DNA of 64,000 nt from a bacterium. Its GTDB lineage: Bacteria > Patescibacteriota > Minisyncoccia > Phycocordibacterales > UBA9973. The position numbers and the translations under genes were made by a program. The stretch is taken from contig JBAWZD010000001.1 in the NCBI GenBank assembly GCA_037143195.1, positions 80,892-144,891 of the forward strand. The letters run 5' to 3'. The notes beneath the pieces were generated by a model. It was not told the origin of the DNA. It searched no databases and saw nothing but the letters and a program-made list of their open reading frames with translations. This document shows, piece after piece, positions 34,887 to 64,000 of this stretch (positions are counted from its first letter, which is position 1; each line of letters begins with the position of its first letter).

Positions 34887-34930
34887 TTTCTACACTGTTT
34901 GTGTATTCATTAAATTTCAACATGGAATTT

Positions 34931-35448: not shown

Positions 35449-35472
35449 GTTCGAGCCCGAAAAAGGGTACGA

Positions 35473-35505: not shown

Positions 35506-35508
35506 ATG

Positions 35509-35591
35509 TGCGTCGGGTAGGATTCGAACCTACGAAGGCCGAAGCCGACAGATTTACAGTCTGTTGTGATAGACCACTCCACCACCGACGC
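35509..35591 (-). tRNA. tRNA-Tyr (anticodon GTA), type II with a long variable arm
   Basis: The reverse complement folds as a cloverleaf with acceptor GCGTCGG/CCGACGC, anticodon loop CTGTAAA and a 15-nt variable arm. CCA is not encoded. Confidence 0.9.
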
Positions 35592-48010: not shown

Positions 48011-48059
48011 GGGTGAGACTTAAGTAGTAGCATTCTAAAAATTTTTTGGCAAATGAGAA

Positions 48060-48092
48060 CGAGGGAACAGACATATAAAATCTGTTCCCTCG
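48060..48092. promoter_or_regulatory. 12-bp perfect stem hairpin about 50-80 nt upstream of topA (not followed by a T-tract); candidate regulatory structure
   Basis: cgagggaacaga catataaaa tctgttccctcg. Confidence 0.35.
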
Positions 48093-48282
48093 CTTGCTTC
48101 AGTTCTGCTTGGTTGCGTTGCGTTTTATTATCATTTTTATTTCCTTTTGCAAGAAATAATTGCGTCTGACCTCGACAGGAATTGTCGCTGCAGACAGTGC
48201 AACCAGTGCTAGAAAAATCCATTTGATAATTAAGAATGCTGTTTCCATAAATAATATTTGTTAGTACGATACCACACTTTAA

Positions 48283-49152
48283 TTAAGAAACGCGACGTAC
48301 TTCGCCGAGCTCTTCTTTCACGATGCCTTTGATTTCGAGCGAGGAGATGAGGATGTTGATCTCGTGTGTTGGTTTTTGAAGGGTAGCTACAATTGTGTCG
48401 CGCGACATTGGTTCGACGAGGAGATCATAGACCGCGCGTTCATCGTTCGTTAGTGCGCTAATTTCAGATTCGCGCTCCGTCGCTTCATCTGTCCCAACCA
48501 AACCAAAAAATTCCAAAATATCTTCGCTCCGTGTAATCGGCGTTGAACCTTGTTTGATGAGTAGATTTGTTCCAAGTGAATTGCTACTTGTGATTGGCCC
48601 CGGTACGGCAAAAACTTCACGATTGTAATCGAGTGCGAGGCTTGCGGTGATGAGCGTGCCAGACTTGTCGGCTGCTTCTACGATGAGTACTGCTTGTGCA
48701 ATACCAGCGATGAGACGATTGCGTCGCGGAAAACTCCATTCAGTCGCGCGAAAATCATTCGCATATTCGGACACGAGCGTGCCACCACTTGCGAGGATTT
48801 CTTTTGCGAGTGAAAGATTGGTCGCAGGATACAAAACAGACTCTCCAAGACCGGAGCCCGGAAATGCTATCGTTCGGAGTCCGGCTTTGAGCGCCGAACG
48901 ATGCGCGACGGAATCAATCCCGAGCGCGAGACCCGATACTATAGTTATGTCCGAACCGCGCAGTCCAAGAATGAGCTTCTCACAGGCATCGGCACCGTAC
49001 CGTGTGTTGGTACGCGACCCAACAACGGCTAAATATCGCCCAAGTGGGTCGATTGGTGCACCTACTCGCTTGAGCGACGTAGGCGGGTCGGGGATCTCTA
49101 ATAATTGTGGCGGGTACTCACTGGGCCCAAGTGGCGAAATGATGAAATCCAT
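48283..49152 (-). CDS. dprA: DNA processing protein A (DprA/Smf)
   Basis: Rossmann-like AVVGSRTNTRYGADA...VSGLALGIDSVAH and a C-terminal winged-helix region. 289 aa. Confidence 0.85.
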   Translation of the reverse strand: MDFIISPLGPSEYPPQLLEIPDPPTSLKRVGAPIDPLGRYLAVVGSRTNTRYGADACEKLILGLRGSDITIVSGLALGIDSVAHRSALKAGLRTIAFPGSGLGESVLYPATNLSLAKEILASGGTLVSEYANDFRATEWSFPRRNRLIAGIAQAVLIVEAADKSGTLITASLALDYNREVFAVPGPITSSNSLGTNLLIKQGSTPITRSEDILEFFGLVGTDEATERESEISALTNDERAVYDLLVEPMSRDTIVATLQKPTHEINILISSLEIKGIVKEELGEVRRVS

Positions 49153-49217
49153 ATTGTAAAAGAACTACTTACACCGATAATTTTCTTATTATATCATTTG
49201 TGCTAGGATTTACGTAT

Positions 49218-50477
49218 ATGTTAGATATCAAATTTATCCGCGAAAATAGCGAGCTCGTGAAAGGTGCAATTCAAAAGAAATTCGTCAAACTCAATCTTGA
49301 TGACCTTCTTTCTCTCGATGACCGTCGTCGAGAAATAATGCAACTCACCGAGAACCTCCGTGCCGAGCAAAAGCGTATTTCTGACGGTATGGTATCTGCC
49401 GATCCTGCTCGTCGCGAACAACTTCTCGCCGAACTTCGTCCGCTCAAGGCGCATGTTGAAGAAAAAGAAGAAGAGCTCAAGAAAATCATGCTCGAATGGC
49501 GTGAGCTCATGCTCCAAGTGCCAAACGTTCCAGACATGACCGTGCCAGACGGAGAGAGTGATGCACAAAATCAGGAAGTCCATGCGTGGGGAGACAAACC
49601 AGAATTCAATTTTGTTCCAAAAGATCATATTGAAATCATGAACGCACTCAAGATGGTAGATTTTGAGCGTGGTACCAAGGTGCACGGATTCCGTGGATAT
49701 TTCCTCACGGGAGATGGGGTACGATTGTGTTTTGCAATTTGGAATTATGCGCTCGACTTCTTTGGCAAGCGTGGATTCACTCCGATCATCCCTCCAATGA
49801 TTGTGCGCAAACAAAACCTCTACGGTACCGGACATTTGCCAGGTGATGTTGAAGACTATTATATGACGCAGGACGGTGACGCACTCGTCGGTACATCTGA
49901 AGTGCCAATCATGGGCATGCATGCTGACGAAGTACTTGATCATTCACAATTTCCAATCAAGTATCTCGGATTTTCACCATGTTACAGACGTGAAGCGGGA
50001 AGCTATTCCAAAGATGTGAAGGGATTGATTCGTGTGCACGAGTTCTACAAATTTGAACAAGTCATTTTGTGTGAGGCATCACATCAGACATCGGTCACAC
50101 TCCACGAACAGCTTCGTCGCAACACAGAAGAATTCATCGAGTCGCTCGGTATTCCGTATCGCACGGTTGTGAACTGTGGTGGAGACCTCGGACTTGGTCA
50201 GGTCAAGAAATATGACATTGAGCTCTGGGTGCCAAAAGAAAATACGTATCGCGAAATCGCATCTGCTTCATACTTCCATGATTTCCAGACACGCCGATTT
50301 AATATTCGCTACAAAGATGCTGAAGGCAAAATGCAGTACGTGCACTCACTCAACAACACCGCAATCCCAACGCCACGTATTCTCGTTTCGATGATTGAAA
50401 ATTGTCAGGAAGCAGACGGACGCATTCGTGTGCCTGAAGTACTCAGATCATATCTCGGCAAAGAATACATTGGCTAA
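49218..50477 (+). CDS. serS: seryl-tRNA synthetase
   Basis: N-terminal coiled coil. Class II motifs FRGYFLTGDG and YRREAGS...GLIRVHEF. The ATG at 49218 is preferred. Confidence 0.95.
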   Translation: MLDIKFIRENSELVKGAIQKKFVKLNLDDLLSLDDRRREIMQLTENLRAEQKRISDGMVSADPARREQLLAELRPLKAHVEEKEEELKKIMLEWRELMLQVPNVPDMTVPDGESDAQNQEVHAWGDKPEFNFVPKDHIEIMNALKMVDFERGTKVHGFRGYFLTGDGVRLCFAIWNYALDFFGKRGFTPIIPPMIVRKQNLYGTGHLPGDVEDYYMTQDGDALVGTSEVPIMGMHADEVLDHSQFPIKYLGFSPCYRREAGSYSKDVKGLIRVHEFYKFEQVILCEASHQTSVTLHEQLRRNTEEFIESLGIPYRTVVNCGGDLGLGQVKKYDIELWVPKENTYREIASASYFHDFQTRRFNIRYKDAEGKMQYVHSLNNTAIPTPRILVSMIENCQEADGRIRVPEVLRSYLGKEYIG

Positions 50478-50498
50478 TCGTGTGCTCTCTCAAAAATT

Positions 50499-51416
50499 AT
50501 GAAGCGCGAAGTATCTCCACTCAAAAAACATATTGAGGAGTCGCCGAAACTTCGCGCGCTCCGTGAACGTAGGATTCGACGTCGTCGTCGCGTCATTACT
50601 GCACTCTGTGTTTTGTTTTTTGTACTGCTCGGCACGACAGTATATGTTTCGCGCTTGCCTCGTATCCAATTGAATACGGTCGAGGTGGTGGGGAACAAAG
50701 TCGTCGATACCGATGATGTCGTGTCGCATGTTGAGAAATATCTTTCAGGGTATTACGTATATCTCATTCCGCATCGCGACGCATTGATATATCCAAAACA
50801 AAAGATTGTGGCAGATTTGGTAAAATCATTTCCACGATTTGATTCAGTGGCGGTATATCGCACGAGTTGGCATACGCTTCAGGTGACGGTGTCGGAAGTG
50901 CGCGGTCGCGCCCTTTGGTGCGGTGAGACTGATACCGACCTCGGTGCGGGCGCGACCGCGCAGTCATGCTACTTCACCGACGAGACCGGCCGTATTGTGA
51001 GTGATGCGCCATACTATTCCGGCAATGTGTATCCGCGATTTTTCGGTGGCACAGTACCGGCGAGCTCCGCTCGCCTCGACAACGAGAACCCCATCGGCAC
51101 CACATTCACCGACCCTGATACATTCAAAAAACTCGTAGCCCTTCAAGAATCGATCGCCAATTTTGGATTTCAAATCAAGAGTGTCGATATTGGAGCAGAT
51201 ACCGAAGATACAATCATGATCGATCTTGGTTCTGGCAAGATAGCACCCGTACGATTCCTGAAGGCTGACAATTTTGAAACGCTCGAAGGCAATCTCTCCG
51301 CCGCACTTTCGAATCCAACGCTTGCAAACGCACTCAAGACTGACAAGCAGAATCTCGAATACTTTGATTTGCGATTTACGAATAAAGTGTATTACAAATT
51401 TTCCGATCAAGAATAA
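50499..51416 (+). CDS. FtsQ/DivIB-like cell-division protein (POTRA domain)
   Basis: Arg-rich cytoplasmic N-terminus, a single TM segment, then a POTRA-like LNTVEVVGNKVVDTDDV segment. Confidence 0.5.
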   Translation: MKREVSPLKKHIEESPKLRALRERRIRRRRRVITALCVLFFVLLGTTVYVSRLPRIQLNTVEVVGNKVVDTDDVVSHVEKYLSGYYVYLIPHRDALIYPKQKIVADLVKSFPRFDSVAVYRTSWHTLQVTVSEVRGRALWCGETDTDLGAGATAQSCYFTDETGRIVSDAPYYSGNVYPRFFGGTVPASSARLDNENPIGTTFTDPDTFKKLVALQESIANFGFQIKSVDIGADTEDTIMIDLGSGKIAPVRFLKADNFETLEGNLSAALSNPTLANALKTDKQNLEYFDLRFTNKVYYKFSDQE

Positions 51417-52039
51417 TGCATATGAAATGTCTTGATCGAAGAGGGTATACATACACCGTGTACGATATCGGGGGAGACCGAGTGCTCAAGAAAATGAAGC
51501 CAGCAGTTTTGCAGCGACTGCTCCATCTTTCGTCGGGAAACTCCAAAAAATATATTGAGCAACACCGAACACGAGCGCGACTCCTTGCAGAAACTTGTCG
51601 AGACAAAGCGCTCATCGGAAATCCTCAGTATGAAATTGACGGTTCATATACTCAGGATCGATGTGAGGTGATTGATACCTATTTTTTATCGCACACGCTC
51701 GAAGAAAATAAAAAATGCGTCGATATGTTTATCGAATGTATTTTTGAAACATGGAAAAATGGTTTTTCCGATATCATTTTTAATTTTACGCGTAACAATG
51801 GACTGTCACACGCAGGGAAAGTAGTTCTGTTTGATTTTAATGAAATTACCTTTGTAAAAAATGAGGTCCTCGCGTTGATCGAGACTGAGCGCTGGCTCCA
51901 TTGTTACTCATTTACAAAAGACTTGCATGCGGGTGCCCTAAAAGATTATTATGCCCAAGCAATGGCTACGGCCATGACGCGGGAGAATCTTGATCGATAT
52001 TGGAAAGACAATGAACAACTTTTGGCAAAAACTCAATAA
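51416..52039 (+). CDS. hypothetical protein (translationally coupled to the preceding gene through a TAATG overlap)
   Basis: 207-aa ORF. No recognisable domain. Confidence 0.35.
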   Translation: MHMKCLDRRGYTYTVYDIGGDRVLKKMKPAVLQRLLHLSSGNSKKYIEQHRTRARLLAETCRDKALIGNPQYEIDGSYTQDRCEVIDTYFLSHTLEENKKCVDMFIECIFETWKNGFSDIIFNFTRNNGLSHAGKVVLFDFNEITFVKNEVLALIETERWLHCYSFTKDLHAGALKDYYAQAMATAMTRENLDRYWKDNEQLLAKTQ

Positions 52040-52988
52040 ACCGTTTTTCGTTCTTGCGCCGATGGCAGATGTCACCGACGCTTCTTTTCGACAGATCATT
52101 GCCAAGTATTCTCGTCATGGGGAGGTGGGTGGAGGACCGGATGTTTTTTGGACTGAATTCGTCGCCGCAGACGGGCTCATGAGTCCGGGACGCGAGGTCT
52201 TGCGTCATGATTTGAAATTCGGGGAGAACGAGCACCCTATCGTCGCTCAACTCTTTGGTTCGCACCCTGAGAAAATGGAAGGTGCGGCCCGACTGTGTCA
52301 GGAACTCGGATTCGACGGGATTGATATCAATATGGGTTGTCCTGACAAGTCGATCGAGAAGCAGGGAGCAGGGGCGTGCATGATGAAGCATCCGGATGTT
52401 GCTCGTGAGATCATTCGAGCCGCGAAACGCGGCGCTCCCAACTTGCCAATCTCTGTCAAGACCCGCATCGGCTACAACAAAAACGAACTCGATACATGGA
52501 TTCCAGAATTGCTTGCAGAAAATATTGCCGCGCTCACCGTGCATTGTCGTACGCGCAAAGAAATGAGCAAGGTGCCTGCGCGATGGGAACATGTCCGAGA
52601 GGCGGTCGCTCTGCGCGACCGCCTCGGAGTCGACACACTCATTCTCGGCAATGGTGATGTCAAAGATATCGCCGACGCGAAACAAAAAGTCGCTGAGACA
52701 GGATGCGATGGCGTCATGCTCGGTCGCGCGATCTTCGGCAATCCGTGGCTCTTCGATCAGCATCGCACCGAAGTGACCAAAGAAGAAAAAATCCGCGTCA
52801 TGGTAGAACACACCAAACTCTACGAGCAAATGCTCGGTGGCATAAAAAGTTTTGCGATCATGAAAAAGCACTACAAAGCCTACGTGAATGGTTTCGACGG
52901 CGCAATGGAACTCCGCGAAAAATTCATGCAGTGCGAAAATGCGAGTGAGGTAGAGGCTGTGGCGAATGCATATCTCGAGGGGAAATAA
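52011..52988 (+). CDS. dus: tRNA-dihydrouridine synthase
   Basis: FVLAPMADVTDASFRQI and NMGCPDKSIEKQGAGACMM, the Dus FMN/catalytic Cys region. The ATG at 52011 is preferred over the TTG at 51990. Confidence 0.85.
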   Translation: MNNFWQKLNKPFFVLAPMADVTDASFRQIIAKYSRHGEVGGGPDVFWTEFVAADGLMSPGREVLRHDLKFGENEHPIVAQLFGSHPEKMEGAARLCQELGFDGIDINMGCPDKSIEKQGAGACMMKHPDVAREIIRAAKRGAPNLPISVKTRIGYNKNELDTWIPELLAENIAALTVHCRTRKEMSKVPARWEHVREAVALRDRLGVDTLILGNGDVKDIADAKQKVAETGCDGVMLGRAIFGNPWLFDQHRTEVTKEEKIRVMVEHTKLYEQMLGGIKSFAIMKKHYKAYVNGFDGAMELREKFMQCENASEVEAVANAYLEGK

Positions 52989-53031
52989 AAAAAGGAAAGC
53001 AATTATTGGATGCTTTCCTTTTTTTATTTTT
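52985..53031. terminator. bidirectional intrinsic terminator between dus and the convergent hypothetical gene
   Basis: aaaaaaaggaaagca attattgga tgctttcctttttttatttttt: a 10-bp stem. Confidence 0.5.
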
Positions 53032-53448
53032 TCACGGCTCAATGTAGACCGTAAACATATTCGGCACGTCTTCTTCCCACTGGAGAACAATTGCCGCTGT
53101 TGGCGACACTTCGTTCACTGGGTAGAAAAAAATAATTTCTCCACCTGATTCGACACCGAAGGTGGTTTGATATTTTAGGACGTATTCGCCCTTTTCAGTT
53201 TTGAGCATAAATCGAATGCTCTTTCTAAACGTCACAGCCATAATCATGACGTACAGGCGACTCTCATTGCCTCCTGTTGGTTTTGGAGCAATGATTGTTT
53301 GCCGTAAGTCACGCTGGAGTTTCTGTAGTCCAGTTTGATTGATTGTGATTGGGCACGAGCCAACACTGCCAGCCTCGGTTGCAAACGTAGCGACCTCACC
53401 GAAAAATTGAGGCAAGTACGCAAAATGTTCATCTGTAAAGTAATCCAT
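53032..53448 (-). CDS. hypothetical protein
   Basis: 138-aa ORF. No recognisable domain. Confidence 0.35.
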   Translation of the reverse strand: MDYFTDEHFAYLPQFFGEVATFATEAGSVGSCPITINQTGLQKLQRDLRQTIIAPKPTGGNESRLYVMIMAVTFRKSIRFMLKTEKGEYVLKYQTTFGVESGGEIIFFYPVNEVSPTAAIVLQWEEDVPNMFTVYIEP

Positions 53449-53552
53449 TGTGTATTTTTTTGGTTTGTCAGCAATATACCATTATTTTAAAATAAGTCAA
53501 AAAATACCTGAATTTTCAGACGGTGACTGTTTTCTGATATACTCATGAATAT

Positions 53553-54578
53553 ATGAGTGACCAAGCCCTATATCGCAAATATCGCCCTGAAGTGTTCGCC
53601 GATCTTGTCGGTCAGGAACACATTGTCGCTTCGCTTGAAGGCGCACTTTCGTCGGGCAAAATCGCGCATGCATATCTCTTTTCGGGCGGTCGCGGTACGG
53701 GCAAGACCACGAGTGCTCGCATTCTCGCGAGTGCGCTCGGTACGAGTACAAGTGACACGTATGAGATAGATGCGGCATCCAACAATGGTGTAGATGACAT
53801 TCGCGAATTGCGCGAGAACGTCGGCACGCTTCCGTTTGATTCGCGATTCAAGGTTTACATCATCGACGAGGTGCATATGCTTTCAAAAGCTGCGTTTAAT
53901 GCACTGCTCAAGACGCTCGAAGAACCACCAGCGCATGTCATTTTTATTCTCGCGACGACCGAACTCGAAAAAGTTCCTGACACTATCATCTCGCGTTGTC
54001 AGACATTTGTATTTCGCAAACCATCTGAATCGACACTTCGCACTGTGATCGAAAAGACTGCCAAGAAAGAAAAAGTCACCCTCGGCGCAGGCGTGGCAGA
54101 TTTGATCGCGCTCCTTGCGAATGGTTCGTTCCGCGATGCGCTTGGCACACTCCAAAAAGTTTGCACGAGCGGGGGAGACAAGGTTTCTCTCGAGCAAGCA
54201 GCCCGCATCACCGGCGCACCATCCGGCACGATCGTCCACGATATCATGGACGCAATCGCGCGCGGAGCACTCAGTGAGGCCCTCACGACTGTTGAGCGCG
54301 CGCGTGCATCCAACATCGAACCCAAAATATTGCTCGGTCTCTTGCTCCACACATTCCGCCGAGTGCTCTTGCTCAAAGTCGCTCCATCGCTCGCCAAAGG
54401 TGAGATTGATGGTTTGAGTGATGAAGAAAAAGTTTTTTTGATAAAGCTGTCAAAGTCGGATTCAGTGCACCTCAATTCAAACGCGCTCCTCGCGCTCCTC
54501 GACGCAATGAGCACCCAAAAGTACGCCTACATCGAAGAATTGCCCCTCGAGCTCGCGCTCATGAAGATGCTTGGGTAG
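53553..54578 (+). CDS. dnaX: DNA polymerase III subunit gamma/tau (short form)
   Basis: LYRKYRPEVFADLVGQEH, P-loop GGRGTGKTT, DExx IIDEVHML, and sensor SRCQTF. 341 aa. Confidence 0.75.
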   Translation: MSDQALYRKYRPEVFADLVGQEHIVASLEGALSSGKIAHAYLFSGGRGTGKTTSARILASALGTSTSDTYEIDAASNNGVDDIRELRENVGTLPFDSRFKVYIIDEVHMLSKAAFNALLKTLEEPPAHVIFILATTELEKVPDTIISRCQTFVFRKPSESTLRTVIEKTAKKEKVTLGAGVADLIALLANGSFRDALGTLQKVCTSGGDKVSLEQAARITGAPSGTIVHDIMDAIARGALSEALTTVERARASNIEPKILLGLLLHTFRRVLLLKVAPSLAKGEIDGLSDEEKVFLIKLSKSDSVHLNSNALLALLDAMSTQKYAYIEELPLELALMKMLG

Positions 54579-54678
54579 GACAGTGTTTCCGAAGGGGAGC
54601 CGACACGGATTCTAGTGAGAATCGCTCGAGAGGTTGTTTTTTGGTCGTAAAAAAGATAAGCTAAAGTGTTTTTACCAT

Positions 54679-54749
54679 TGAGGGATCGTCTAACGGTAGG
54701 ACAGAGGCCTTTGAAGCCTTTAATCGGGGTTCGATTCCCTGTCCCTCAG
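54679..54749 (+). tRNA. tRNA-Gln (anticodon TTG) with a U1:A72 pair
   Basis: Acceptor TGAGGGA/TCCCTCA, anticodon loop CTTTGAA, TPsiC arm CGGGGTTCGATTCCCTG. Confidence 0.8.
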
Positions 54750-54806
54750 CAAACAAGAACGCCGTTTGATTACTTAAGAAATAGTTATTAATTAATATTA
54801 CATATT

Positions 54807-55544
54807 ATGTTTTCAAAATGGTGGCAGTCATTTAAATTAGAAAATGAGTTAATTGATTCAACAAGGATGGCCATTGAAGACAGACTATCCTCACCATTTT
54901 ACGGATATTTTATATCCTCATGGTTTTTGTTTAATTGGAAAATAATTTATATCGCTTTTTTTGTTGATCAAAATATTATTCTGCAAAAAACTACTTTACT
55001 ACGCTCCGATTATCTTATCAGGTCTTTTCCTATCCTCTGGAGCTGGGAATTTTGGTTACATTTTTTTATCTATCCATTTTTTGCCACGGTACTTTTCTTT
55101 TGGATTTTTCCATACCTAACGAGGGAGTATTACAGAAAAAGTATCAGAAATAAAAAAGCACTTCGTATTATTGAAATAAAAGAAACAAAACAGGAGACAA
55201 TACAAGAAAAAGAACTTATCGAAGAGCAAGTTAAAAAAGCAATCATTGAACAAGAAGTCGAAGTAAGCAACCCGAAAGTGTTTTGGGAAAAAGATTTTCA
55301 AGCTTTTAAAGACACAAATCTCTTTGAAAAGTTTCAAATGATCTTGGATGGAATATACAAATATAATGGGGACGTTAAATGGAATTGGAATGGAGCAAGG
55401 TACACTGGTTCTATTGATAATGAAATTTTGGTTTTTTGTGATTTGAATGGTTTAGTTAATATTCATAATGGTAATAAAATCACCTTAACTGATAAAGGTA
55501 AATTTTTCGCCCGAAAATATATTGAAATTAAAAGCCAACCTTAA
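54807..55544 (+). CDS. hypothetical island protein (N-terminal TM helices, then a Lys/Glu-rich coiled coil)
   Basis: 245-aa ORF in the AT-rich island. No recognisable domain. Confidence 0.4.
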   Translation: MFSKWWQSFKLENELIDSTRMAIEDRLSSPFYGYFISSWFLFNWKIIYIAFFVDQNIILQKTTLLRSDYLIRSFPILWSWEFWLHFFIYPFFATVLFFWIFPYLTREYYRKSIRNKKALRIIEIKETKQETIQEKELIEEQVKKAIIEQEVEVSNPKVFWEKDFQAFKDTNLFEKFQMILDGIYKYNGDVKWNWNGARYTGSIDNEILVFCDLNGLVNIHNGNKITLTDKGKFFARKYIEIKSQP

Positions 55545-55600
55545 CTTTCAAAAAGCACGAACACTCCAGAGTGCCATAATAAAACCAAGGCAAGCCGTAT

Positions 55601-56107
55601 ATGAAAAAAGTAAAAATTAAAGAATTTAACAATGAAGAGCTTTGGCTTGGATACGGTGATATTCAACAAGAACTCAAAAAACGTAACCTAGTTCGAACCA
55701 ACAATATTACTGGAGAGCGAGGAGAATTTCTTGTAATTGAAACTTATAATTCGACCAAAGCTTTGCCAAATCTACAAGCTTCTCCACAAAGTACAAAAAA
55801 TATTGATGCGATCAGTCGCAATGGTGAAAGATATAGTATTAAATCAATCACTGATCCTTCTAGGATAACAGGTGTGTTTCATGATATGGGCGAGAAAGAG
55901 GATACGTCGGTACCTGATAAAAAGTTTGAATACGTGGTTATTGTTCAACTTTTTAATAACTATAGACCGAAACTAATAGTAGAATTAACGTGCGAGCAAT
56001 TTCTTAAATATAGAAAATGGCACAAAACAATGAGGGCTTGGAATTTAAGTTTAACTAAGTCACTACTTTCTGAAGCTAAGATTATTTTAGATAATACTCA
56101 AGGTTAA
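55601..56107 (+). CDS. hypothetical island protein
   Basis: 168-aa ORF, 4 nt upstream of the next gene. No recognisable domain. Confidence 0.4.
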   Translation: MKKVKIKEFNNEELWLGYGDIQQELKKRNLVRTNNITGERGEFLVIETYNSTKALPNLQASPQSTKNIDAISRNGERYSIKSITDPSRITGVFHDMGEKEDTSVPDKKFEYVVIVQLFNNYRPKLIVELTCEQFLKYRKWHKTMRAWNLSLTKSLLSEAKIILDNTQG

Positions 56108-56110
56108 TAT

Positions 56111-57160
56111 ATGGAGCCAACAGAAAAAGAAATTATCGAATCTTTATATAAAGCGATGTGCTCAGCCACAAGTACTGTGAGTGACGCTAAGCGTACTAAT
56201 AATAGTTATTTCAAAAGAAGAGTTTTAGGTTTTAAAGCGGAGATTGAGTTTTCTAAATTTATCGAGGGATATAAAGATATACATTTTTTTGAAGGTGGAA
56301 ACTTTATTTCTAGAAAACTTTCTGGGAAAGTATCGGATAAAAATAAGTTCATATATGTAACACTTGCAAAAAATGAGAGTGAGGATTTTAAGGAAATATA
56401 TTCCGTAATTTCGCAATGGGACGAAGTCGAGAATCTTTTTTATATAAAAATAGATAATAATAGCTGGTCGCAGACAGGGTTTGCGACCAGAAAAAAATTA
56501 AGAAATGGGAAAAGTAAGGATATTGAAGATTCTATTTTGGTTCCCAAATATACTTTTTATAGGTTTAATAAAAACATCGGATCATTTGATATGTGTGAAA
56601 TTCAAAATTTTGACTGTATTTTATCATGGTTTTCCAAGCCAACCAGAAAATCAAGTCTTTTCCCTCTAAGAAAAAAAGATCAATTCGAATACTTTTCAGA
56701 TTATGATGCCAGTGTGTTAAAAAATATTTATGCTAATCGTTATTTTTTAGATGTCATTTTAAGGCAAGCAAGCGGCCGACAAATAATTGATTTAGATGGG
56801 TTTTTAAAAGTGAACGGTCGTTATTTCGTTGTTGAAGTTAAAGAAAAAGATCCAATTAGAAAAAAAGGAAAGAAAGTAGACGACATAAATAATTGGCAGT
56901 TCGGTTGGGATTCAAGAAGAATACTCTGGTATTTGTATTTAAAAGTAAAGTTAAATCTACCTGTTTTGTATAATATTAGAGAAATAAGTAATCAAGAAGA
57001 GAGAACCTTTGTTCAATGGGATTCTATTTTTATAGATGATTTTCTTAAGGGTACTAGCTGGTCAAATAGTAGAAGTGGCGGAGGGGGTGGGGACACCGTA
57101 CTTGCACCTCACTCGTTTTTTAGAAGACTTAGTGACGTTCTTAATGAATTATTAAGATAA
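56111..57160 (+). CDS. hypothetical island protein with a possible PD-(D/E)xK nuclease-like core (IIDLDGF...FVVEVKEKD)
   Basis: 349-aa ORF. The D...D...EVK arrangement is compatible with a restriction-endonuclease-like fold. Gly5 tract near the C-terminus. Confidence 0.4.
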   Translation: MEPTEKEIIESLYKAMCSATSTVSDAKRTNNSYFKRRVLGFKAEIEFSKFIEGYKDIHFFEGGNFISRKLSGKVSDKNKFIYVTLAKNESEDFKEIYSVISQWDEVENLFYIKIDNNSWSQTGFATRKKLRNGKSKDIEDSILVPKYTFYRFNKNIGSFDMCEIQNFDCILSWFSKPTRKSSLFPLRKKDQFEYFSDYDASVLKNIYANRYFLDVILRQASGRQIIDLDGFLKVNGRYFVVEVKEKDPIRKKGKKVDDINNWQFGWDSRRILWYLYLKVKLNLPVLYNIREISNQEERTFVQWDSIFIDDFLKGTSWSNSRSGGGGGDTVLAPHSFFRRLSDVLNELLR

Positions 57161-57206
57161 CTCTTGTGTCGCTTTATTTTTTCTTTTTTGTTAGTATGTT
57201 CTGACT

Positions 57207-57974
57207 ATGGCGCAAAGAACTCCCGCTCAGGCGAAGAAGCGAATTATTCAGCTTTTTATTGACAATGTTAAGGGACGAACACCTGATACTCATAGCTCGA
57301 ACATAAGGCATGATGGTAAAGGAGGTCATTGGTTGGAAAAACAAATGGGTATTGCTCATAACGCAAGCAATACTCCGGACATTGATGGTTTTGAGATGAA
57401 GAATGACACGACAAGTAAAACCACGTTCGGTGATTGGTCGCCTAATTATCGCATTTACAAGAAAGGGAATGACTACGGTCTTGATCGTACAAAGTTCCTC
57501 GAAATCTTTGGCGCACCAAACCCCGCTAAAGATAATCGATATTCATGGTCAGGAAAACCTGTACCAAAAATTAATAAATACAATTCTTTTGGCCAGAAAC
57601 TTGAAATTGATAAGAATAATAATATCCTTGCCATGTATTCATTTTCGAAGGATGAACGACTGAATAAGTCTAAAATTGTTCCCAAGCTATTACAAAAGGA
57701 CGGCCTAGTTATCGCTCGCTGGGATTGTGAAAAAATGACCGTTCGAGTTGAACGAAAATTTAATAAGCTCGGTTGGTTTAAATGTCTAATTAAAGATGGA
57801 GTTTATACCAAGATTGTTTTCGGGGATCCAATTAGTTTTAGAACGTGGATAGCAGGAGTGAAGAAAGGTCAGATCTTTTTTGATAGCGGAATGTATGCTG
57901 GTAACCCACGACCGTATGCTCAGTGGCGTGCCGACAATAAATATTGGGATTCACTAATTACAGACGAGTACTAG
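57207..57974 (+). CDS. putative type II restriction endonuclease (PD-ExK: NTPDIDGFEMK)
   Basis: 255-aa ORF, convergent with the C5-methyltransferase and overlapping it by 17 bp. PD...D-x-E-x-K motif. Confidence 0.5.
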   Translation: MAQRTPAQAKKRIIQLFIDNVKGRTPDTHSSNIRHDGKGGHWLEKQMGIAHNASNTPDIDGFEMKNDTTSKTTFGDWSPNYRIYKKGNDYGLDRTKFLEIFGAPNPAKDNRYSWSGKPVPKINKYNSFGQKLEIDKNNNILAMYSFSKDERLNKSKIVPKLLQKDGLVIARWDCEKMTVRVERKFNKLGWFKCLIKDGVYTKIVFGDPISFRTWIAGVKKGQIFFDSGMYAGNPRPYAQWRADNKYWDSLITDEY

Positions 57975-59061
57975 TTTTAAGGAGTCTTTGTTGAGCACTC
58001 TTTACGCTTTCCCGTTTTATTTTTTCTAGATTGATTTGGCTGTTGTTGATCTGAGTATTTTTTTGAAGCTCCTTCATTGCAATGAGTACTTGTTTTGCTA
58101 GAGCTTTGATTACAGGGACAGCAACACTGTTCCCAAATTGCTTATAGGCTTGAGTGTCACTTGGAGAAACAATGTAACTATCAGGAAATCCTTGTAGTCG
58201 AGCAGCTTCACGTGGTGTCAGCTTGCGAGGGTTTTTGTTTTTTTGCTTAATTAGAATTTCAGACCCGTCTTTGTAATATCGAGCAGAAATAGTGCTTGTA
58301 TATTCTGAATTTTCATCAAATATTGAATATCCAAATCCGTTTCCTTTTTCACGATGCTCTTTTTTTCGTCTCTGGTGTCCTGCCCACAGTTTGTCGGAGA
58401 TTGTATATTTTGGATGAACTGTACTTTCAAGGATATTTCCAAGGCGAGTTGGTTTACCGGTTGGTTTTGGAAATGAAAAATTTGTTTTTCCGAGAAATCC
58501 GACAATATAAATACGTTCACGGTTTTGAGGAATACCAAAATCTCTCGCGTTCAAAACTTGAGCGTGGATTTCGTAACCGAGTCCCTCAAGGATGCTTTTG
58601 ATTGTTTCAAAAGTCTTGCCTCCGTCATGACTTTTGAATCGCTTGACGTTCTCTAAAAAGACGACTGATGGTCGATGGTGTTCGACAATCTTTGCAATAT
58701 CAAAGAACAATGTACCTCTTGTGTCAGCAAGACCTAATTTTTTTCCAGCTTGAGAGAAAGGCTGGCAGGGAAATCCAGCGAGGAGTACATCGAAGCTTGG
58801 GATACTTGCAGGCTCGATTTGTGTAATATCTCCGTAGGGGAGTTCATTGAAATTTTGTTGGTATGTTTTTTGTGCAGCGGAGTCCCATTCTGAAGTAAAT
58901 ACGCATTCTCCACCCACACTTTCGAATCCTAAGCGAATGCCTCCTATTCCAGCGAATAGATCAATCATTTTAAATTCAGAATTTATCGGGGTCTTTGTCT
59001 TAGAAAATAGACTTGAGACATCTATTTTTTTAAGTTGAGAGACTTTTGTTTTTTTAGCCAT
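57958..59061 (-). CDS. dcm: DNA (cytosine-5)-methyltransferase
   Basis: Motif I DLFAGIGGIRLGF, motif IV FPCQPFSQAGK, motif VI ENVK, motif VIII QNRERIYIVGF. Confidence 0.9.
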   Translation of the reverse strand: MAKKTKVSQLKKIDVSSLFSKTKTPINSEFKMIDLFAGIGGIRLGFESVGGECVFTSEWDSAAQKTYQQNFNELPYGDITQIEPASIPSFDVLLAGFPCQPFSQAGKKLGLADTRGTLFFDIAKIVEHHRPSVVFLENVKRFKSHDGGKTFETIKSILEGLGYEIHAQVLNARDFGIPQNRERIYIVGFLGKTNFSFPKPTGKPTRLGNILESTVHPKYTISDKLWAGHQRRKKEHREKGNGFGYSIFDENSEYTSTISARYYKDGSEILIKQKNKNPRKLTPREAARLQGFPDSYIVSPSDTQAYKQFGNSVAVPVIKALAKQVLIAMKELQKNTQINNSQINLEKIKRESVKSAQQRLLKTSTRL

Positions 59062-59162
59062 TTTATTTTGTTATTATAGCAATTTTTAATATGTCTCGAT
59101 ACATTGCCAGTTTTGTTTTTTGATTGTTGATTACCGAATCAAGAGAAGCTAACATAATTATA

Positions 59163-59180
59163 TGTGAACGATCGTTCACA
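59163..59180. promoter_or_regulatory. perfect 18-bp palindrome TGTGAACGATCGTTCACA (GAAC-N4-GTTC core) in the divergent promoter region between the methyltransferase and the SOUL gene
   Basis: Exact self-complementarity. The core matches the GAAC-N4-GTTC architecture of Cheo/LexA-type boxes, and the central GATC is a Dam-type site. Confidence 0.4.
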
Positions 59181-59261
59181 AGCAATATTCAAATATGTTG
59201 ATAACATTTTTACTCGTCTGCTTTCTGAATTTTACACCTAGCATAGTGGTATAATGAGTAT

Positions 59262-59882
59262 ATGAACATAATCTACGCCGTAGTGGGGCTGTGTGTGGTG
59301 TGGTCGATTTGGGGATTTGTTTCTTCGCGTGTGCCGAAGACTCCTTATTCCGTGCTTGAATCGAAGCACGGCTACGAGGTGCGACTATATCCAGCACACA
59401 TTGTCGCGCAGACGACCGTGAAGGGTTCGTATGAAATGGCGCTCAATCAGGGCTTCCGCATTGTTGCGGGATATATTTTTGGTGGCAATACGAAGAAGGA
59501 GAGTATCTCCATGACTTCACCTGTAGTGGAGAAGAGCGCATCCTCCGAATCGATCGCGATGACATCTCCCGTCGTCGCGACCATCGAAGGCGAGTCGCAT
59601 ACCATCGCATTTGGCATGCCACAATCGTACACACTCGAGACACTTCCGACACCGACTGACTCGCGTGTCACTATCGCGACCATTCCCGAAAAGAAAATGG
59701 CTGTCATCCGATTTGGCTGGATGCGCACACCAGAGCGCGTGCAATCCAAAAAGCAGACCCTCCTTGATGCGCTCGCTACTGACAAGGTCACTGTCGTCGG
59801 TTCATCAGAATACGCGGGCTACAATGCACCGTGGACTCCGCCATGGATGACACGTCACGAAGTGCTTGTCGAAATCAAATAA
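59262..59882 (+). CDS. SOUL/HBP-family heme-binding-like protein
   Basis: HGYEVRLYPAHIVAQT...YIFGGNTKKESISMTSPV matches the SOUL signature. N-terminal hydrophobic segment. Confidence 0.6.
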   Translation: MNIIYAVVGLCVVWSIWGFVSSRVPKTPYSVLESKHGYEVRLYPAHIVAQTTVKGSYEMALNQGFRIVAGYIFGGNTKKESISMTSPVVEKSASSESIAMTSPVVATIEGESHTIAFGMPQSYTLETLPTPTDSRVTIATIPEKKMAVIRFGWMRTPERVQSKKQTLLDALATDKVTVVGSSEYAGYNAPWTPPWMTRHEVLVEIK

Positions 59883-59901
59883 TCTTTTACGTAAAAAACG
59901 C

Positions 59902-61005
59902 ATGCATATGAAATTCTCAAAAAGCTCAGTACTCGTCATCGCGATCCTGCTCGTCGCAGGGATTATTCTTGTCGCGCGAAAACATACGATCATTGTTCTT
60001 CCGCATTCGATCGATGGATCGACGACGCCTGCTCCGCTCGCACCGGCTCCGACCGATGCGGTGGACACAACCAGTAGTTCAAAGTCTGCTCTGTATACAA
60101 GGATAACAACGGTGGATGGATATTCCACCGTGGATTTTTCGCGTGTCGGCAAAGACGCCGAGAGTGGGCCGAATCCACAAATGGGTATTGATGTGTCGAA
60201 GCAGACAGTCGTCACGAGTCTTGGGACGGCACAGCTCATGACAGAGTTTTCGATACTCGATGTTTGTGATGTGCGTTTCGATCGAATCATGAATATCGAT
60301 ACGGACGCAGGACATATCGAGCTTGATGTCGAGGCTGTGATGGCTGACGCAATGAATCCAAACGATACAGTGAGCAAAATAGTTCACGAAAATCCCTCGT
60401 ATTTTGAAAAAACAAAAGTATATGGATGTGGCGATCGACTCATTTGGAAAAAGAACGGACGAGAATCGTTTTACTCCGCGCTCGTTGCTGGCAAGACCGG
60501 ACCAATCAGTCAGGCATGGTTTAAAACATTTGATACCATATTCGCCAAGATTCGCACCGCAAAGACGGCGAATGAGGCAGTCGAGACTATAAACGCGATG
60601 TCGCTTGAAGCTTCGAATTCAAATACATTTACGAGTCAGCCTGCGGCGATTCAGTCGATCGTGAAGCAAGCGGACGGAACGTGGCAATTCGCCATCGACC
60701 TCTTGTCGAGGAACCCACATTGGTTGCCGGGCGGGGAAGAAGGCTTCTTCCTCAATCTGAGCCCCGTGATGCGTCATCTCGTCGTGACGAATGCGACCAA
60801 GACGTATGTGTGTGGCGGAAATCCGAACAACAATAACACGACGGCCGAGCTTCTTGAGCCGACAGCAGGCTATGTAGCAAAATTGCAGTCTCGACTTGCA
60901 CAGATACAAACTGAAACACAGGCGAGTATTTCTCAAACCCTCAACGCATACATGAGTGCCGATGGGACCAAAATCACCGCTCTATACGATCAATGTTTGC
61001 CCTAG
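59902..61005 (+). CDS. hypothetical membrane-anchored protein
   Basis: N-terminal TM segment (VLVIAILLVAGIILVA), then a soluble domain of about 340 aa of unknown family. Confidence 0.4.
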   Translation: MHMKFSKSSVLVIAILLVAGIILVARKHTIIVLPHSIDGSTTPAPLAPAPTDAVDTTSSSKSALYTRITTVDGYSTVDFSRVGKDAESGPNPQMGIDVSKQTVVTSLGTAQLMTEFSILDVCDVRFDRIMNIDTDAGHIELDVEAVMADAMNPNDTVSKIVHENPSYFEKTKVYGCGDRLIWKKNGRESFYSALVAGKTGPISQAWFKTFDTIFAKIRTAKTANEAVETINAMSLEASNSNTFTSQPAAIQSIVKQADGTWQFAIDLLSRNPHWLPGGEEGFFLNLSPVMRHLVVTNATKTYVCGGNPNNNNTTAELLEPTAGYVAKLQSRLAQIQTETQASISQTLNAYMSADGTKITALYDQCLP

Positions 61006-61073
61006 TTTCTGCTTCGGATTCGGTGCCGAAAAATGGTGTATACTGTCGGGTATATAAGTAACGATATAATTAT

Positions 61074-61319
61074 ATGTCAGAAAAAAAGCCAACAATGTGC
61101 GAAAGTTGTTTGATGCCGTTTGCGAAGGATACAGGCGTGCGTGAATCGGACAAGTATTGCAGTTTGTGTTTTAAGAACGGCAAACTGTGTTACGAAGGCA
61201 CCGACTTGAAAGAATTCCAAAAAGTCTGTTATGAGAGTATGCGCAAAAATGGTATCAATCCAATCACGGCGCGATTCTATACATGGATGATTCGATTCGC
61301 TCCACGTTGGAAAAAATAA
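61074..61319 (+). CDS. small zinc-ribbon protein
   Basis: 81 aa with CESC...CSLC...C..C spacing. Confidence 0.5.
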   Translation: MSEKKPTMCESCLMPFAKDTGVRESDKYCSLCFKNGKLCYEGTDLKEFQKVCYESMRKNGINPITARFYTWMIRFAPRWKK

Positions 61320-61325
61320 TCACGT

Positions 61326-62105
61326 ATGCAATCTACGTTTCTTGATTTTGTCGCGTTTGTACAAAAAGAAGCGCGAGCCTGTCTCTTTGCAGGCTCGTTT
61401 CTTTTTCTGATTTTTATTTCAAAATATATTCATGTGTTTGGGCTCGCGCGGTATGATTTCCTTTTCCTTGCAGCAGTCGCGATTCAAATTCTGATGCTTG
61501 TGTTCAAACTCGAGACCAAGGATGAGGCAAAGACGATCGTGCTTTTTCATGTGATTGGATTTTTGCTTGAAGTGTACAAAACGAGCCCGATGATTGGCTC
61601 GTGGTCGTATCCGGAAGCGGGATTTTTTAAACTCTGGAATGTGCCACTCTATAGCGGATTTATGTATGCATCAATCGGAAGCTATATCGCGCATGCGTGG
61701 AAAGGCCTATCGCTCCGGCTCGTGAATCCGCCACCATATAGGTACAGTGTGATGCTCTGTTTTTGTGTGTATCTCAATTTTTTCACAAACCATTTCATCT
61801 GGGATTTCCGTCCGCTCCTCATTCTTGCCGTGTTTGCACTCTACACTCGGACACGTATCGAATACACGCCACGTACGAAGGTATATTCAATGCCACTCGT
61901 GCTCGGTTTTGTATTGACCGCGCTCTTCGTTTGGATCGCTGAGAACATCGGTACGTTCTACGGCGCGTGGCAATATCCGTCACAAATCCATGCGTGGACT
62001 GTGGTCTCGACGCAAAAAATCACCTCATGGTTTCTCATGGTGATCATCAGTTTCATCATCGTCGCATATTTGAAACACGTAAAGGCTGGACGGAGTGCGC
62101 ACTAG
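61326..62105 (+). CDS. DUF817-like polytopic membrane protein
   Basis: 259 aa with about 8 TM helices. Composition and topology resemble the DUF817 family. Confidence 0.45.
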   Translation: MQSTFLDFVAFVQKEARACLFAGSFLFLIFISKYIHVFGLARYDFLFLAAVAIQILMLVFKLETKDEAKTIVLFHVIGFLLEVYKTSPMIGSWSYPEAGFFKLWNVPLYSGFMYASIGSYIAHAWKGLSLRLVNPPPYRYSVMLCFCVYLNFFTNHFIWDFRPLLILAVFALYTRTRIEYTPRTKVYSMPLVLGFVLTALFVWIAENIGTFYGAWQYPSQIHAWTVVSTQKITSWFLMVIISFIIVAYLKHVKAGRSAH

Positions 62106-62165
62106 TTTTGTTGTGGGAATATTTCAATATTTGGTACACTACCTATTATTTTTCAAATACAATTT

Positions 62166-62585
62166 ATGGAAACAACTCACGTACCAAATCCACGCATCGA
62201 AGAACGCGCCAAATCAGGTCCACATTTGACCAAGCATGAGCATACGGGGCTCAACGGTCGCATTGCTGTCGTCATCACGAGCCTCGTCGGTACGATGTGG
62301 TGTGCGTATCTCTTTGCAATCATCGCATTCATTAGTTTGCCTGCTGCAATCAAAGCGGGAACTCCGGCGCTCATCTCATGGATTGCACAGACATTTTTGC
62401 AGTTGGTGTTGCTCTCCGTCATTATGGTGGGACAAAAAGTCGCCGCTGCTGCATCTGACAAACAAGCACTTCAGACGTATAAAGACGCGGAGGCGCTCCT
62501 CAAAATGCAGGACGAAGTGCATCGCTTGATTACAATCAACAACCAACTGACACAAGAGATTCACGAGTTTGTCGTCAAGAAATAA
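62166..62585 (+). CDS. DUF1003-family membrane protein (second paralog in this window)
   Basis: TM hairpin followed by SVIMVGQ-like and coiled-coil segments. Resembles 23896..24411. Confidence 0.5.
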   Translation: METTHVPNPRIEERAKSGPHLTKHEHTGLNGRIAVVITSLVGTMWCAYLFAIIAFISLPAAIKAGTPALISWIAQTFLQLVLLSVIMVGQKVAAAASDKQALQTYKDAEALLKMQDEVHRLITINNQLTQEIHEFVVKK

Positions 62586-63337
62586 TGCGAATGACGAAAC
62601 AGAATCAATGTATCATTCGTACCATATCGATTTTTCTGCTGTGCATTCTTGCGCAAAGTTTTTTTGTGCACGACGTCTCTGCGAGCGAGGTGACACAAAC
62701 ACCAATTGAGAAAAAAGTCGCACTGACGTTCGACGATGGTCCGTACGGTGAACCGACGCGACAGATTCTCGCTATCCTGAAGCAGGAGCAAGTACACGCG
62801 ACGTTTTTTGTCATGGGAGAGAACGTTGAAAAATATCCCGATATTGCAAAGGCTATTGTCGACGATGGCAATGTAATTGCAAATCATTCATATGATCATC
62901 CAAAGAACATGACGAGTGAACCGACCAAGAAATTTGATAGTGAATTGATATTGACTGAGAATGCAATTTTTACGGCAACAAACAAACTGCCAGATTTGTT
63001 TCGTGCTCCCTATGGAAGAACCTCAGCTCCACTTTTGAAAAAATTGCATGATGAAAAATATTCGCTCGTGCGCTGGACGCTCGATACGCTCGATTGGAAT
63101 TTCCCGAAGAGTCCGTCGGATGCGATTGTGAAGCGTGTACTTACGAAAGTGCACCCGAACGATATTATATTGATGCACGATGGCCGTGATACAAAGATTG
63201 GGTATCCCCGAGACAATATTGTCGATGCGTTGCCAAAAGTGATTGAAGGTCTCAAAAAGGCAGGGTACACACTCGTGACCGTGGACCAAATCGTAGGCAA
63301 AAGCGCATATTTCGATTCAAAAGAAACACAACAATGA
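62585..63337 (+). CDS. polysaccharide deacetylase (NodB homology domain), secreted
   Basis: Signal peptide, then TFDDGPY...HATFFVMGE...NHSYDHP, the NodB motifs. Confidence 0.8.
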   Translation: MRMTKQNQCIIRTISIFLLCILAQSFFVHDVSASEVTQTPIEKKVALTFDDGPYGEPTRQILAILKQEQVHATFFVMGENVEKYPDIAKAIVDDGNVIANHSYDHPKNMTSEPTKKFDSELILTENAIFTATNKLPDLFRAPYGRTSAPLLKKLHDEKYSLVRWTLDTLDWNFPKSPSDAIVKRVLTKVHPNDIILMHDGRDTKIGYPRDNIVDALPKVIEGLKKAGYTLVTVDQIVGKSAYFDSKETQQ

Positions 63338-63424
63338 TTCGGGTGTCCGTCTTCATGCAAGAAAATGTCGTGGTATCCACATATTTCCTCGTGTTTCGCC
63401 TGAGCAATTGATACCATAGTAGGT

Positions 63425-63964
63425 ATGAGTATGAAAAAAATGAGCAAAACAATTTTGCGTGCACTCTTCGTGGGTGTTTTTTTATTGGCAGGCACGAGCG
63501 TTTTTGCAGGTACAGTGTTTGCAAAAGGTGGTCATAAAGTAAAAGACACACAAACAAGCGTCCCAGATTATGGCGCACTGTATGAACAAAAAACAAAAGA
63601 TGCGAATCTATCGCACGATATGATTACGGGGACCATCGCTGCGATCGAAGCGCACACACTTTCTGTTTCACTAACTGAGGTTTCAGGAAAATTGCCTGTC
63701 GGCACTCTCGTTACTGTTGCAACAGCACATGCAAAAATGACGCGCACTGGTTCCGCAAATCTATCAGCGAAACCATCAAGAAGTGCTTTGCGATCAATGA
63801 GCGCAAAATCACAAACAAACGCACCAAAAGTCTCGATGAGTGATTTCGCTGTTGGTGATGCTGTCACTGTCGTCGGCTCGCTCGATACAAACAACGCAAT
63901 GAAAGCAAAACAAATCCTTGCACACGCAAAGAATGATTTTCATATTAGTCAACCGGTAAAATAA
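63425..63964 (+). CDS. hypothetical secreted protein
   Basis: Signal peptide MSKTILRALFVGVFLLAGTSVFA. 179 aa. Confidence 0.4.
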   Translation: MSMKKMSKTILRALFVGVFLLAGTSVFAGTVFAKGGHKVKDTQTSVPDYGALYEQKTKDANLSHDMITGTIAAIEAHTLSVSLTEVSGKLPVGTLVTVATAHAKMTRTGSANLSAKPSRSALRSMSAKSQTNAPKVSMSDFAVGDAVTVVGSLDTNNAMKAKQILAHAKNDFHISQPVK

Positions 63965-63965
63965 T

Positions 63966-64000
63966 ATGAAAAAAATAACTCTCCTCGCCCTTGGTGTTTC
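63966..64000 (+). CDS. 5' fragment of a secreted or membrane protein (MKKITLLALGV...), truncated by the window end
   Basis: ATG 2 nt after the previous stop, with a hydrophobic N-terminus. Only 11 codons are visible. Confidence 0.25.
   Translation, partial: MKKITLLALGV

Follow-up and report, generated by a model that had tools for sequence, protein, structure and literature searches.

A window of 64,000 nucleotides from contig JBAWZD010000001.1 (positions 80,892 to 144,891, forward strand; assembly GCA_037143195.1), belonging to an uncultured bacterium of the Parcubacteria/Paceibacterota in the candidate phyla radiation (CPR), was analysed. The segment 54763–59234 of this window, bounded by a tRNA-Gln gene and the promoter of a SOUL gene, represents one allele of a defence slot that varies among strains, because near-identical relatives hold unrelated cargo between the same breakpoints. 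The allele carries five genes, here called I1, I2, I3, I4 and M in the order of their positions. It is read as a composite restriction cluster in which a C5-cytosine DNA methyltransferase (M) and two unrelated nucleases (I3 and I4) would act on CCNGG, accompanied by a predicted BisI-type nuclease (I2) and a membrane protein (I1), and in which the cassette would have been gained by exchange between the conserved flanks; the probability of this reading as a whole is put at roughly 0.7.

M (57958..59061, minus strand) encodes a C5-cytosine DNA methyltransferase of 367 amino acids (Pfam DNA_methylase, E = 1e-108; TIGR00675). Its residues 240–264, GNGFGYSIFDENSEYTSTISARYYK, match exactly the recognition-domain signature of CCNGG methylases, G(K/N)GFx13T(I/L)x3YYK (PMC3346939), and its specificity is predicted to be CCNGG. 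Two types of methylase were distinguished in the comparison: a short type, to which M belongs and which is associated with I3, and a long one carrying an XRE-type helix-turn-helix (HTH) domain at its N-terminus, which is associated with LlaMI nucleases. M is 60–76% identical to the I3-partnered methylases with which it groups and 52% identical to the plasmid-borne partners of LlaMI. A perfect 18 bp palindrome, TGTGAACGATCGTTCACA, lies at 59163..59180, 102–119 nt upstream of the M start, and is unique in the window. The same TGTGAAC-N4-GTTCACA arrangement was found upstream of methylase genes with ∼70% identity at two other loci (L086, 8098–8115; L130, 4548–4565), and all three methylases preceded by it are of the short type without an N-terminal HTH domain. 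The palindrome is probably an operator of these HTH-less methylase genes.

I4 (57207..57974, plus strand) encodes a 255-amino-acid Type II restriction endonuclease of the LlaMI/ScrFI family (CC^NGG). The Pfam family RE_LlaMI (PF09562) was matched at 2.3e-59 over residues 29–254 of 255, MvaI_BcnI at 1.6e-15 and the PADLOC model REase_II at 2e-80. The protein is 48–53% identical, over 96–99% of its length, to plasmid genes annotated as 'LlaMI family restriction endonuclease' and paired with dcm; such pairs are found on plasmids of Gammaproteobacteria and Bacillota, and on pTR3_5 and pP62BP1 the LlaMI-family nuclease and the dcm-type methylase have the same convergent, overlapping layout as I4 and M. 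Both ScrFI and LlaMI, with the recognition sequence CCNGG, have been assigned to this nuclease family in the description of pP62BP1 (PMC3346939). I4 is accordingly annotated as a nuclease served by M and predicted to cut CC^NGG, the second such nuclease beside I3.

I3 (56111..57160, plus strand) encodes a protein of 349 amino acids from an unannotated family. Its homologues form 88 clusters, none of which has a Pfam domain and every named one of which is a 'hypothetical protein'; the superfamily comprises ∼207 clusters among 1.84 billion representatives. No match to I3 was found in Pfam, NCBIfam, PADLOC, PHROGs or PDB sequence profiles, and a single-sequence search of the PDB returned one chance-level match (E = 0.47). 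Among 72 distant relatives there was likewise no Pfam match, the PDB profile search gave only marginal matches to viral capsid proteins (E ≥ 1) and PADLOC gave single marginal matches. Profile comparison with hhalign revealed no relation of I3 to I4 or to I2, and no relatives were found in plasmids or in 2.9 million viral contigs.

The genomic context of I3 was examined at 68 loci from unrelated organisms. A locus was considered evaluable if at least 1.3 kb was available on both sides of the gene (n = 21), and the overall set consisted of the loci with a near-complete I3 (n = 48). A methylase orthologous to M (52–76% identical) adjoins I3 in all 21 evaluable loci and in 46 of the 48 overall, and the methylases beside I3 all share the core of the CCNGG recognition domain. 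Gene order is shuffled among the loci; the I3 and methylase genes are mostly arranged tail-to-tail, and at 34 of 46 loci their orientation is convergent or divergent. A LlaMI-like gene stands beside the pair in six of the 21 evaluable loci and is absent from the other 15. In four loci (L083, L086, L098 and L099) a gene for an HTH_3 controller (C-protein) directly abuts the I3 start codon. Four others (L091 and L094–L096) have a conserved open reading frame (ORF) of 106–110 amino acids, with no Pfam match, ∼330 nt upstream of I3, where the C gene sits elsewhere; it may encode an alternative regulator. In Halobacteriovorax sp. RT-2-4 (L084, 1352–2326 and 7595–10962) a divergent paralogue of I3 (24% identity) was noted near a cluster of I3, I4 and methylase genes. 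Immediately downstream of this cluster lies a Gabija-like pair, an OLD-TOPRIM ATPase and a UvrD helicase, and in this organism the cluster belongs to a more extensive defence island.

Four acidic and basic residues of I3, in the arrangement D227-x-D229...E242-x-K244, are invariant in 35 close family members and have equivalents in the 72 distant ones, across which the motif D-x-D...E-x-K-x-K is itself invariant. The AlphaFold2 (AF2) model of I3 has a predicted local distance difference test score (pLDDT) of 91; its C-terminal domain resembles the Hjc resolvases (template-modelling score 0.52–0.59) and is preceded by a large extra N-terminal domain.

Depletion of the predicted recognition site provided an independent line of evidence. 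The host DNA of the window contains 39 CCNGG sites, 81 being expected, and this ratio of 0.48 is the lowest of 96 palindromic motifs; the depletion is the same for CCWGG and CCSGG. The cassette itself contains no CCNGG site (five expected). When 33 unrelated contigs with I3 and the methylase but without a LlaMI-like gene were pooled (205 kb), the ratio was 0.52 (z = −7.2), compared with 0.48 for 12 contigs that carry I3, the methylase and I4 and with 0.93 for 80 control loci (1.2 Mb). Per-locus medians were 0.53 for all I3 loci versus 0.91 for the controls (Mann–Whitney p = 9e-7). Loss of CCNGG by deamination of 5-methylcytosine was considered as a cause and ruled out because its product, CTNGG/CCNAG, is not enriched (1.00 and 1.03). 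Pooling site avoidance over unrelated contigs that share a gene pair, together with a deamination control, may be a reusable approach that predicts specificity without biochemistry. A further motif, GCNGC, is depleted in the host part of the window (1–54762 and 59235–64000) with a ratio of 0.60 (z = −5.0; 0.93 in the 80 control loci) and in Parcubacteria relatives (L003–L008 and L035), with a pooled ratio of 0.72 and a minimum of 0.41 in L007. This suggests a lineage-wide exposure to Fnu4HI-type restriction that is independent of the cassette. A GCNGC or GCGC specificity of M had been considered on account of this depletion and of a match to M.HhaI; this was ruled out since the depletion of GCNGC is common to relatives without the cassette, the GCNGC ratio is 0.99 in hosts with I3 and I4, and the signature of M is of the CCNGG type.

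From the methylase linkage, the controller gene, the invariant motif, the Hjc-like core and the site depletion, we infer that I3 is probably a Type II restriction endonuclease of a new family, cognate to M and specific for CCNGG. To our knowledge two protein solutions for CCNGG recognition have been described, one LlaMI/ScrFI–MvaI/BcnI-like and the other SsoII/Ecl18kI/PspGI-like. At about even odds, I3 founds an uncharacterized Type II family (∼200 clusters at 50% identity) that recognizes CCNGG by an architecture unrelated to both. Its methylase type, which it has in common with LlaMI, would then have permitted repeated mergers of two nucleases with one methylase, and in the present cassette a BisI-type nuclease would have been added, so that unmethylated and hypermethylated invaders would both be cut.

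A repair function was weighed as an alternative. I3 would in that case be a Vsr-like nuclease acting on T:G mismatches that deamination of 5-methylcytosine produces at CCNGG, I4 would be the sole true restriction enzyme, and the loci with I3 and a methylase only would be pairs of an orphan methylase and a repair enzyme, comparable to dcm–vsr of E. coli. The strict linkage of I3 to a C5 methylase recalls that of vsr to dcm, the core of I3 is small and of the PD-(D/E)xK type, and LlaMI and its methylase are self-sufficient on plasmids that lack I3. The C-protein genes that abut I3, however, represent an arrangement known for toxic restriction genes and not for vsr, and the predominantly convergent or divergent orientation means that I3 and the methylase are not co-transcribed at those loci. 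CCNGG is depleted equally strongly whether hosts have I3 and the methylase only or I4 as well, with no enrichment of CTNGG. I3 matches neither the Vsr family nor any other Pfam family, and it has 349 residues with a large additional N-terminal domain. A repair role for I3 is therefore regarded as unlikely, and the assignment as a restriction endonuclease is retained.

I2 (55601..56107, plus strand) encodes a 168-amino-acid PD-(D/E)xK nuclease of the BisI family, predicted to be of Type IIM (PADLOC mREase_II, 1.6e-50, full length), and 3 nt separate its stop codon from the I3 start. A profile built from five co-located homologues of I2 matched Eco15I (6.4e-10; residues 6–158 versus 7–149) and NhoI (1.6e-3) over the full length. 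The active site of the family is of the Mrr-like PD-QxK type and comprises an α1 glutamate, the aspartate of an xD element and a Q-x-K motif (PMC11347163); in I2 the first two correspond to E42 and D69, both of which are invariant. Characterized members of the BisI family cut only DNA modified with 5-methylcytosine, the typical substrate being GCNGC with m5C or hm5C; some BisI homologues nick or cut unmodified DNA (PMC8281217). I2 is predicted to depend on 5-methylcytosine in GCNGC-like sites. Such an enzyme next to a CCNGG methylase would plausibly not be suicidal, because BisI spares Cm5CWGG and coexists with a methylase of that kind without self-restriction (PMC8281217).

The limits of the slot were defined using two near-identical relatives, L160 and L162, which were reached through homologues of the right-flank SOUL gene (95% and 87% identity) on long contigs. 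Their DnaX proteins are 98.5% (L160) and 97.4% (L162) identical to that of the window and their Dus proteins 96–97%; the closest DnaX relatives are metagenome-assembled genomes (MAGs) of Paceibacterota/Parcubacteria. Nucleotide homology (blastn) of L160 to the window extends over 45917–54762 and 59235–64000, and that of L162 stops at 54751 and also restarts at 59235. The left breakpoint lies 0–12 nt beyond the tRNA-Gln gene (54679..54750, plus strand; anticodon TTG; identified by ARAGORN and by Rfam RF00005 with 61.7 bits), which is the conserved left anchor of the slot. The right breakpoint lies just upstream of TGGTATAAT, the extended −10 box of the SOUL gene, within the right anchor (59235..59261, plus strand; blastn and alignment) in which homology resumes ahead of the SOUL start codon at 59262. 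The variable cassette (54763..59234) therefore measures 4472 nt with a G+C content of 0.344, down from 0.466, as delimited by the blastn breakpoints, the junction alignments and the composition. A first interpretation made from the letters of this stretch alone (the sequence-only reading) had placed the right edge at ∼59100; the restart of homology moves it to 59234, and the added segment 59062–59234 contains the palindrome that belongs to the methylase gene.

Between these breakpoints L160 carries 1093 nt with two small genes and L162 carries 5.1 kb with a DUF6119 gene, a MazG-like gene and a Schlafen-type helicase gene that matches the Nhi/AbiO defence models. Homologues of the five island proteins were found in neither. 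Conserved flanks, identical breakpoints and unrelated cargo are thus combined at one site, as in a strain-variable defence hotspot, and the syntenic comparison that the sequence-only reading had proposed shows dnaX–tRNA-Gln and SOUL kept in relatives with 97–98.5% identical DnaX and entirely different genes in between. Species-representative genomes found through DnaX were all distant (50–57% identity), too distant to reveal an empty site; they keep dus–dnaX–tRNA-Gln and differ in the genes downstream. Past the same tRNA, L004 has another restriction–modification pair (an N6/N4 methylase with a MutH-like nuclease), also accompanied by a drop in G+C content, L003 has a zeta toxin gene, and L005 and L155 have a GIY-YIG gene.

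Several further differences were observed around the slot. A gene for 117/129 amino acids with a weak match to DUF559 (Vsr-like endonuclease) adjoins SOUL in L160 (9560–9949) and L162 (9596–9949) and is 98% identical between the two; it is absent from the window, so the cassette of the window replaced that gene too. A gene for 228 amino acids lies between dnaX and tRNA-Gln in L162 (4082–4768) and L155 (5811–6497), with 48% identity between the copies, and is absent from the window and from L160; some variability thus extends to the left of the tRNA. The contigs of the Logan assembly of SRR12676973 are interrupted within tRNA-Gln (end of L001 and start of L002, ∼54697–54713 of the window), and the right junction is assembled through. 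Cassette alleles that coexist, or a tRNA sequence common to other members of the community, could account for the break. In L155 an exact 16 nt direct repeat of the tRNA-Gln 3′ end (6565–6580 and 6948–6963) flanks a small GIY-YIG ORF, and in L005 a GIY-YIG ORF (12795–13058) lies directly 3′ of tRNA-Gln; the arrangement suggests a small mobile element of the GIY-YIG type with the tRNA end as its target.

Integrative elements typically sit at tRNA 3′ ends, as the cassette does, and it might accordingly be the remnant of a prophage or of an integrative and conjugative element that has lost its integrase and attachment sites, an origin with which the match of the I1 N-terminus to phage protein families and the duplicated tRNA end around the GIY-YIG gene of L155 would agree. 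No integrase-like protein was found among the five island ORFs, however, and a search of the window for repeats (≥14 nt) of the tRNA-Gln 3′ end found none; a match to it at 58570 was dismissed as chance, being 74% identical and located within the methylase gene. The window contains no phage structural genes, the three alleles have identical breakpoints and their cargo genes gave no match to integrase or recombinase families (Pfam and PADLOC scans), the I3 family lacks relatives in the viral contigs, and the cassette genes are all full length and retain their catalytic motifs. An integrase-borne ancestry is on this evidence improbable. The sequence-only reading had itself remarked that neither an integrase nor an attachment-site repeat was visible, which holds for the window, and had taken this as a sign that the insertion may be old and degraded. 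That second step is not supported: the genes are intact and the cassette differs between near-identical strains, and cassette exchange across conserved flanks at a hotspot accounts for the absence of an integrase better than decay does. Most likely, therefore, cassettes are swapped at this slot by recombination between the flanks without an integrase.

The segment deviates in composition from the rest of the window. The G+C content falls from ∼0.51 to 0.30 directly past tRNA-Gln and rises again at ∼59250; it is 0.346 in 54751–59100 versus 0.465 elsewhere in the window, which bears out the sharp fall that had been noticed at the outset. In 1 kb steps the mean is 0.457 ± 0.038, and all steps below 0.40 lie in 54501–59000 except one, 34501–35500 (0.381), which adjoins tRNA-Tyr (35508–35591) and is a candidate for another small variable patch beside a tRNA. 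The G+C content at third codon positions is 0.24–0.36 in the island genes compared with 0.473 ± 0.057 in 39 host ORFs, and in codon-usage distance the first three island genes lie further out than all of these host ORFs. I1–I3 (54807–57160) have a G+C content of 0.30–0.33 and a codon distance of 0.62–0.67, while the sub-block of I4 and the methylase (57207–59061) is nearer to the host (0.39 and 0.35–0.38, respectively), which hints that the cassette was pieced together from parts differing in origin or age. All five ORFs were recovered where the sequence-only reading had listed them, including the convergent pair 57207–57974 and 57958–59061 with its 17 nt overlap, and its proposal of horizontally acquired, tRNA-adjacent defence DNA with restriction–modification genes is supported by both composition and synteny. 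Its description of the content as a restriction–modification system plus three unknown genes holds for the former and not for the latter as passengers, I3 being the probable partner nuclease and I2 a BisI-family nuclease, so that three nucleases accompany one methylase. A Rfam scan revealed the tRNA as the only RNA gene, and a scan for promoters and terminators gave matches that were not clearly above chance.

I1 (54807..55544, plus strand) encodes a membrane protein of 245 amino acids with N-terminal transmembrane helices, a helix of ∼75 residues and a small C-terminal winged-helix-like domain. In its AF2 model (pLDDT 79) the C-terminal domain weakly matches MarR/S19e, and the N-terminus matches PHROG families without assigned function (best E = 2e-13). 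About ten homologues were found, those with named sources all being from Paceibacterota MAGs. In two distant relatives the homologue is found beside tRNA-Gln: 263 nt past a tRNA-Gln(ctg) in other genomic surroundings (L151) and past the same dnaX-linked tRNA-Gln(ttg) (L155). A further one lies near tRNA-Glu and adjoins a PIN toxin gene (L153), and one, in another contig, is next to a PemK toxin gene and a few kilobases from a serine recombinase gene. In all genomes examined the homologues are richer in AT than their flanks. That I1 recurs where AT-rich segments border a tRNA may be due to its co-transfer with the conserved tRNA during flank-mediated exchange. I1 had also been considered as an ancestral backbone gene on account of L155, where it shares the tRNA-Gln and an upstream motif and has diverged as much as dus and dnaX; this was ruled out at the strain level, as L160 and L162 lack I1. 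The wider view that the whole region is native, AT-rich and fast-evolving, its composition reflecting gene content (membrane proteins and nucleases) and not horizontal gain, would draw on the AT-richness of the I1 homologues and on the divergence of the L155 copy (50% versus 53% for dus and dnaX), but it is very improbable, being already contradicted by the relatives with 97–98.5% identical DnaX that lack all five genes and hold other cargo between the same breakpoints, and faced with the I2, I3, I4 and methylase modules in unrelated organisms (MAGs of uncultured bacteria, Halobacteriovorax, many metagenome contigs and, for LlaMI and dcm, plasmids).

A number of observations weigh against the reading of the cassette as a layered CCNGG restriction cluster. 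I2 accompanies I3 in only three of the 21 evaluable loci and I4 in only six, so that three nucleases together make up one assortment among several rather than a fixed system. The structural match of I3 is confined to the generic PD-(D/E)xK core (Foldseek E ∼3e-3), and homology to characterized restriction enzymes was not detectable. The best solved relative of M overall is M.HhaI, which recognizes GCGC; the evidence for the specificity of M therefore comes from the signature, the linkage to LlaMI-family genes and the site depletion. In I2 the sequence S79-I-K81 replaces Q-x-K, as in all five co-located homologues, and the methyl-sensing dipeptide (H/R)(V/I/T/M) reads T-M in the window copy when aligned with NhoI (R-M in two of the homologues, T-M or T-V in the other two); methyl-dependence is consequently not assured. 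Finally, the backbones of L160 and L162 are depleted of CCNGG as well (0.53 and 0.55) although these strains lack the cassette at the locus. The depletion is thus a long-term feature of the lineage, which can neither date the cassette nor prove it active.

With these reservations, the proposed mode of action is as follows. M would modify CCNGG and thereby protect the host DNA, and the unrelated endonucleases I3 and I4 would both cut unmethylated CCNGG on incoming DNA. I2 would cut DNA carrying 5-methylcytosine at GCNGC-like sites and so catch heavily methylated phages that escape I3 and I4, presumably sparing the C5mCNGG of the host as BisI spares Cm5CWGG. The membrane protein I1 lies at the tRNA-proximal end of the cassette. 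Two unrelated nucleases served by one methylase, together with a predicted methyl-dependent nuclease, would amount to a compact layered restriction system. Members of the CPR/Patescibacteria have tiny genomes, in which restriction systems may matter greatly, and even this reduced genome keeps a slot of 1–5 kb beside a tRNA gene with defence cassettes that differ among near-identical strains. For I3 a function is proposed where its family had no annotation, namely that of a probable CCNGG restriction enzyme.

Comparison with known systems places the individual parts as follows. The slot resembles tRNA-adjacent defence islands and hotspots in its conserved flanks, its sharp shared breakpoints, its differing defence-type cargo and its low G+C content, and differs from them in the lack of an integrase or recombinase in three alleles, in its very small size (1–5 kb) and in its location in a reduced CPR genome. 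The I4–M pair corresponds to the ScrFI and LlaMI systems of Lactococcus lactis (CC^NGG) and to that of pP62BP1 in its full-length LlaMI nuclease, its methylase with the CCNGG signature and its convergent overlap; unlike M.ScrFI-like enzymes M is short and has no N-terminal XRE-HTH domain, and the cassette adds a second, unrelated nuclease, I3. The four loci in which an HTH_3 gene stands directly before I3 with a methylase adjacent are like C-protein-controlled Type II restriction–modification systems of the PvuII, BamHI and EcoRV types, from which the cassette of the window differs: it contains no C-protein gene, and instead the conserved palindrome lies upstream of M and I2 precedes I3. I2 resembles BisI, Eco15I and NhoI in its size, in the profile match to both solved members over the full length and in the order of the active-site elements, and differs in the S-I-K sequence, in the partly conserved dipeptide and in its operon-like cluster shared with a 5-methylcytosine methylase. 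An element of this kind is well known; what is new is the I3 family with its predicted specificity, and the composite architecture of the cassette.

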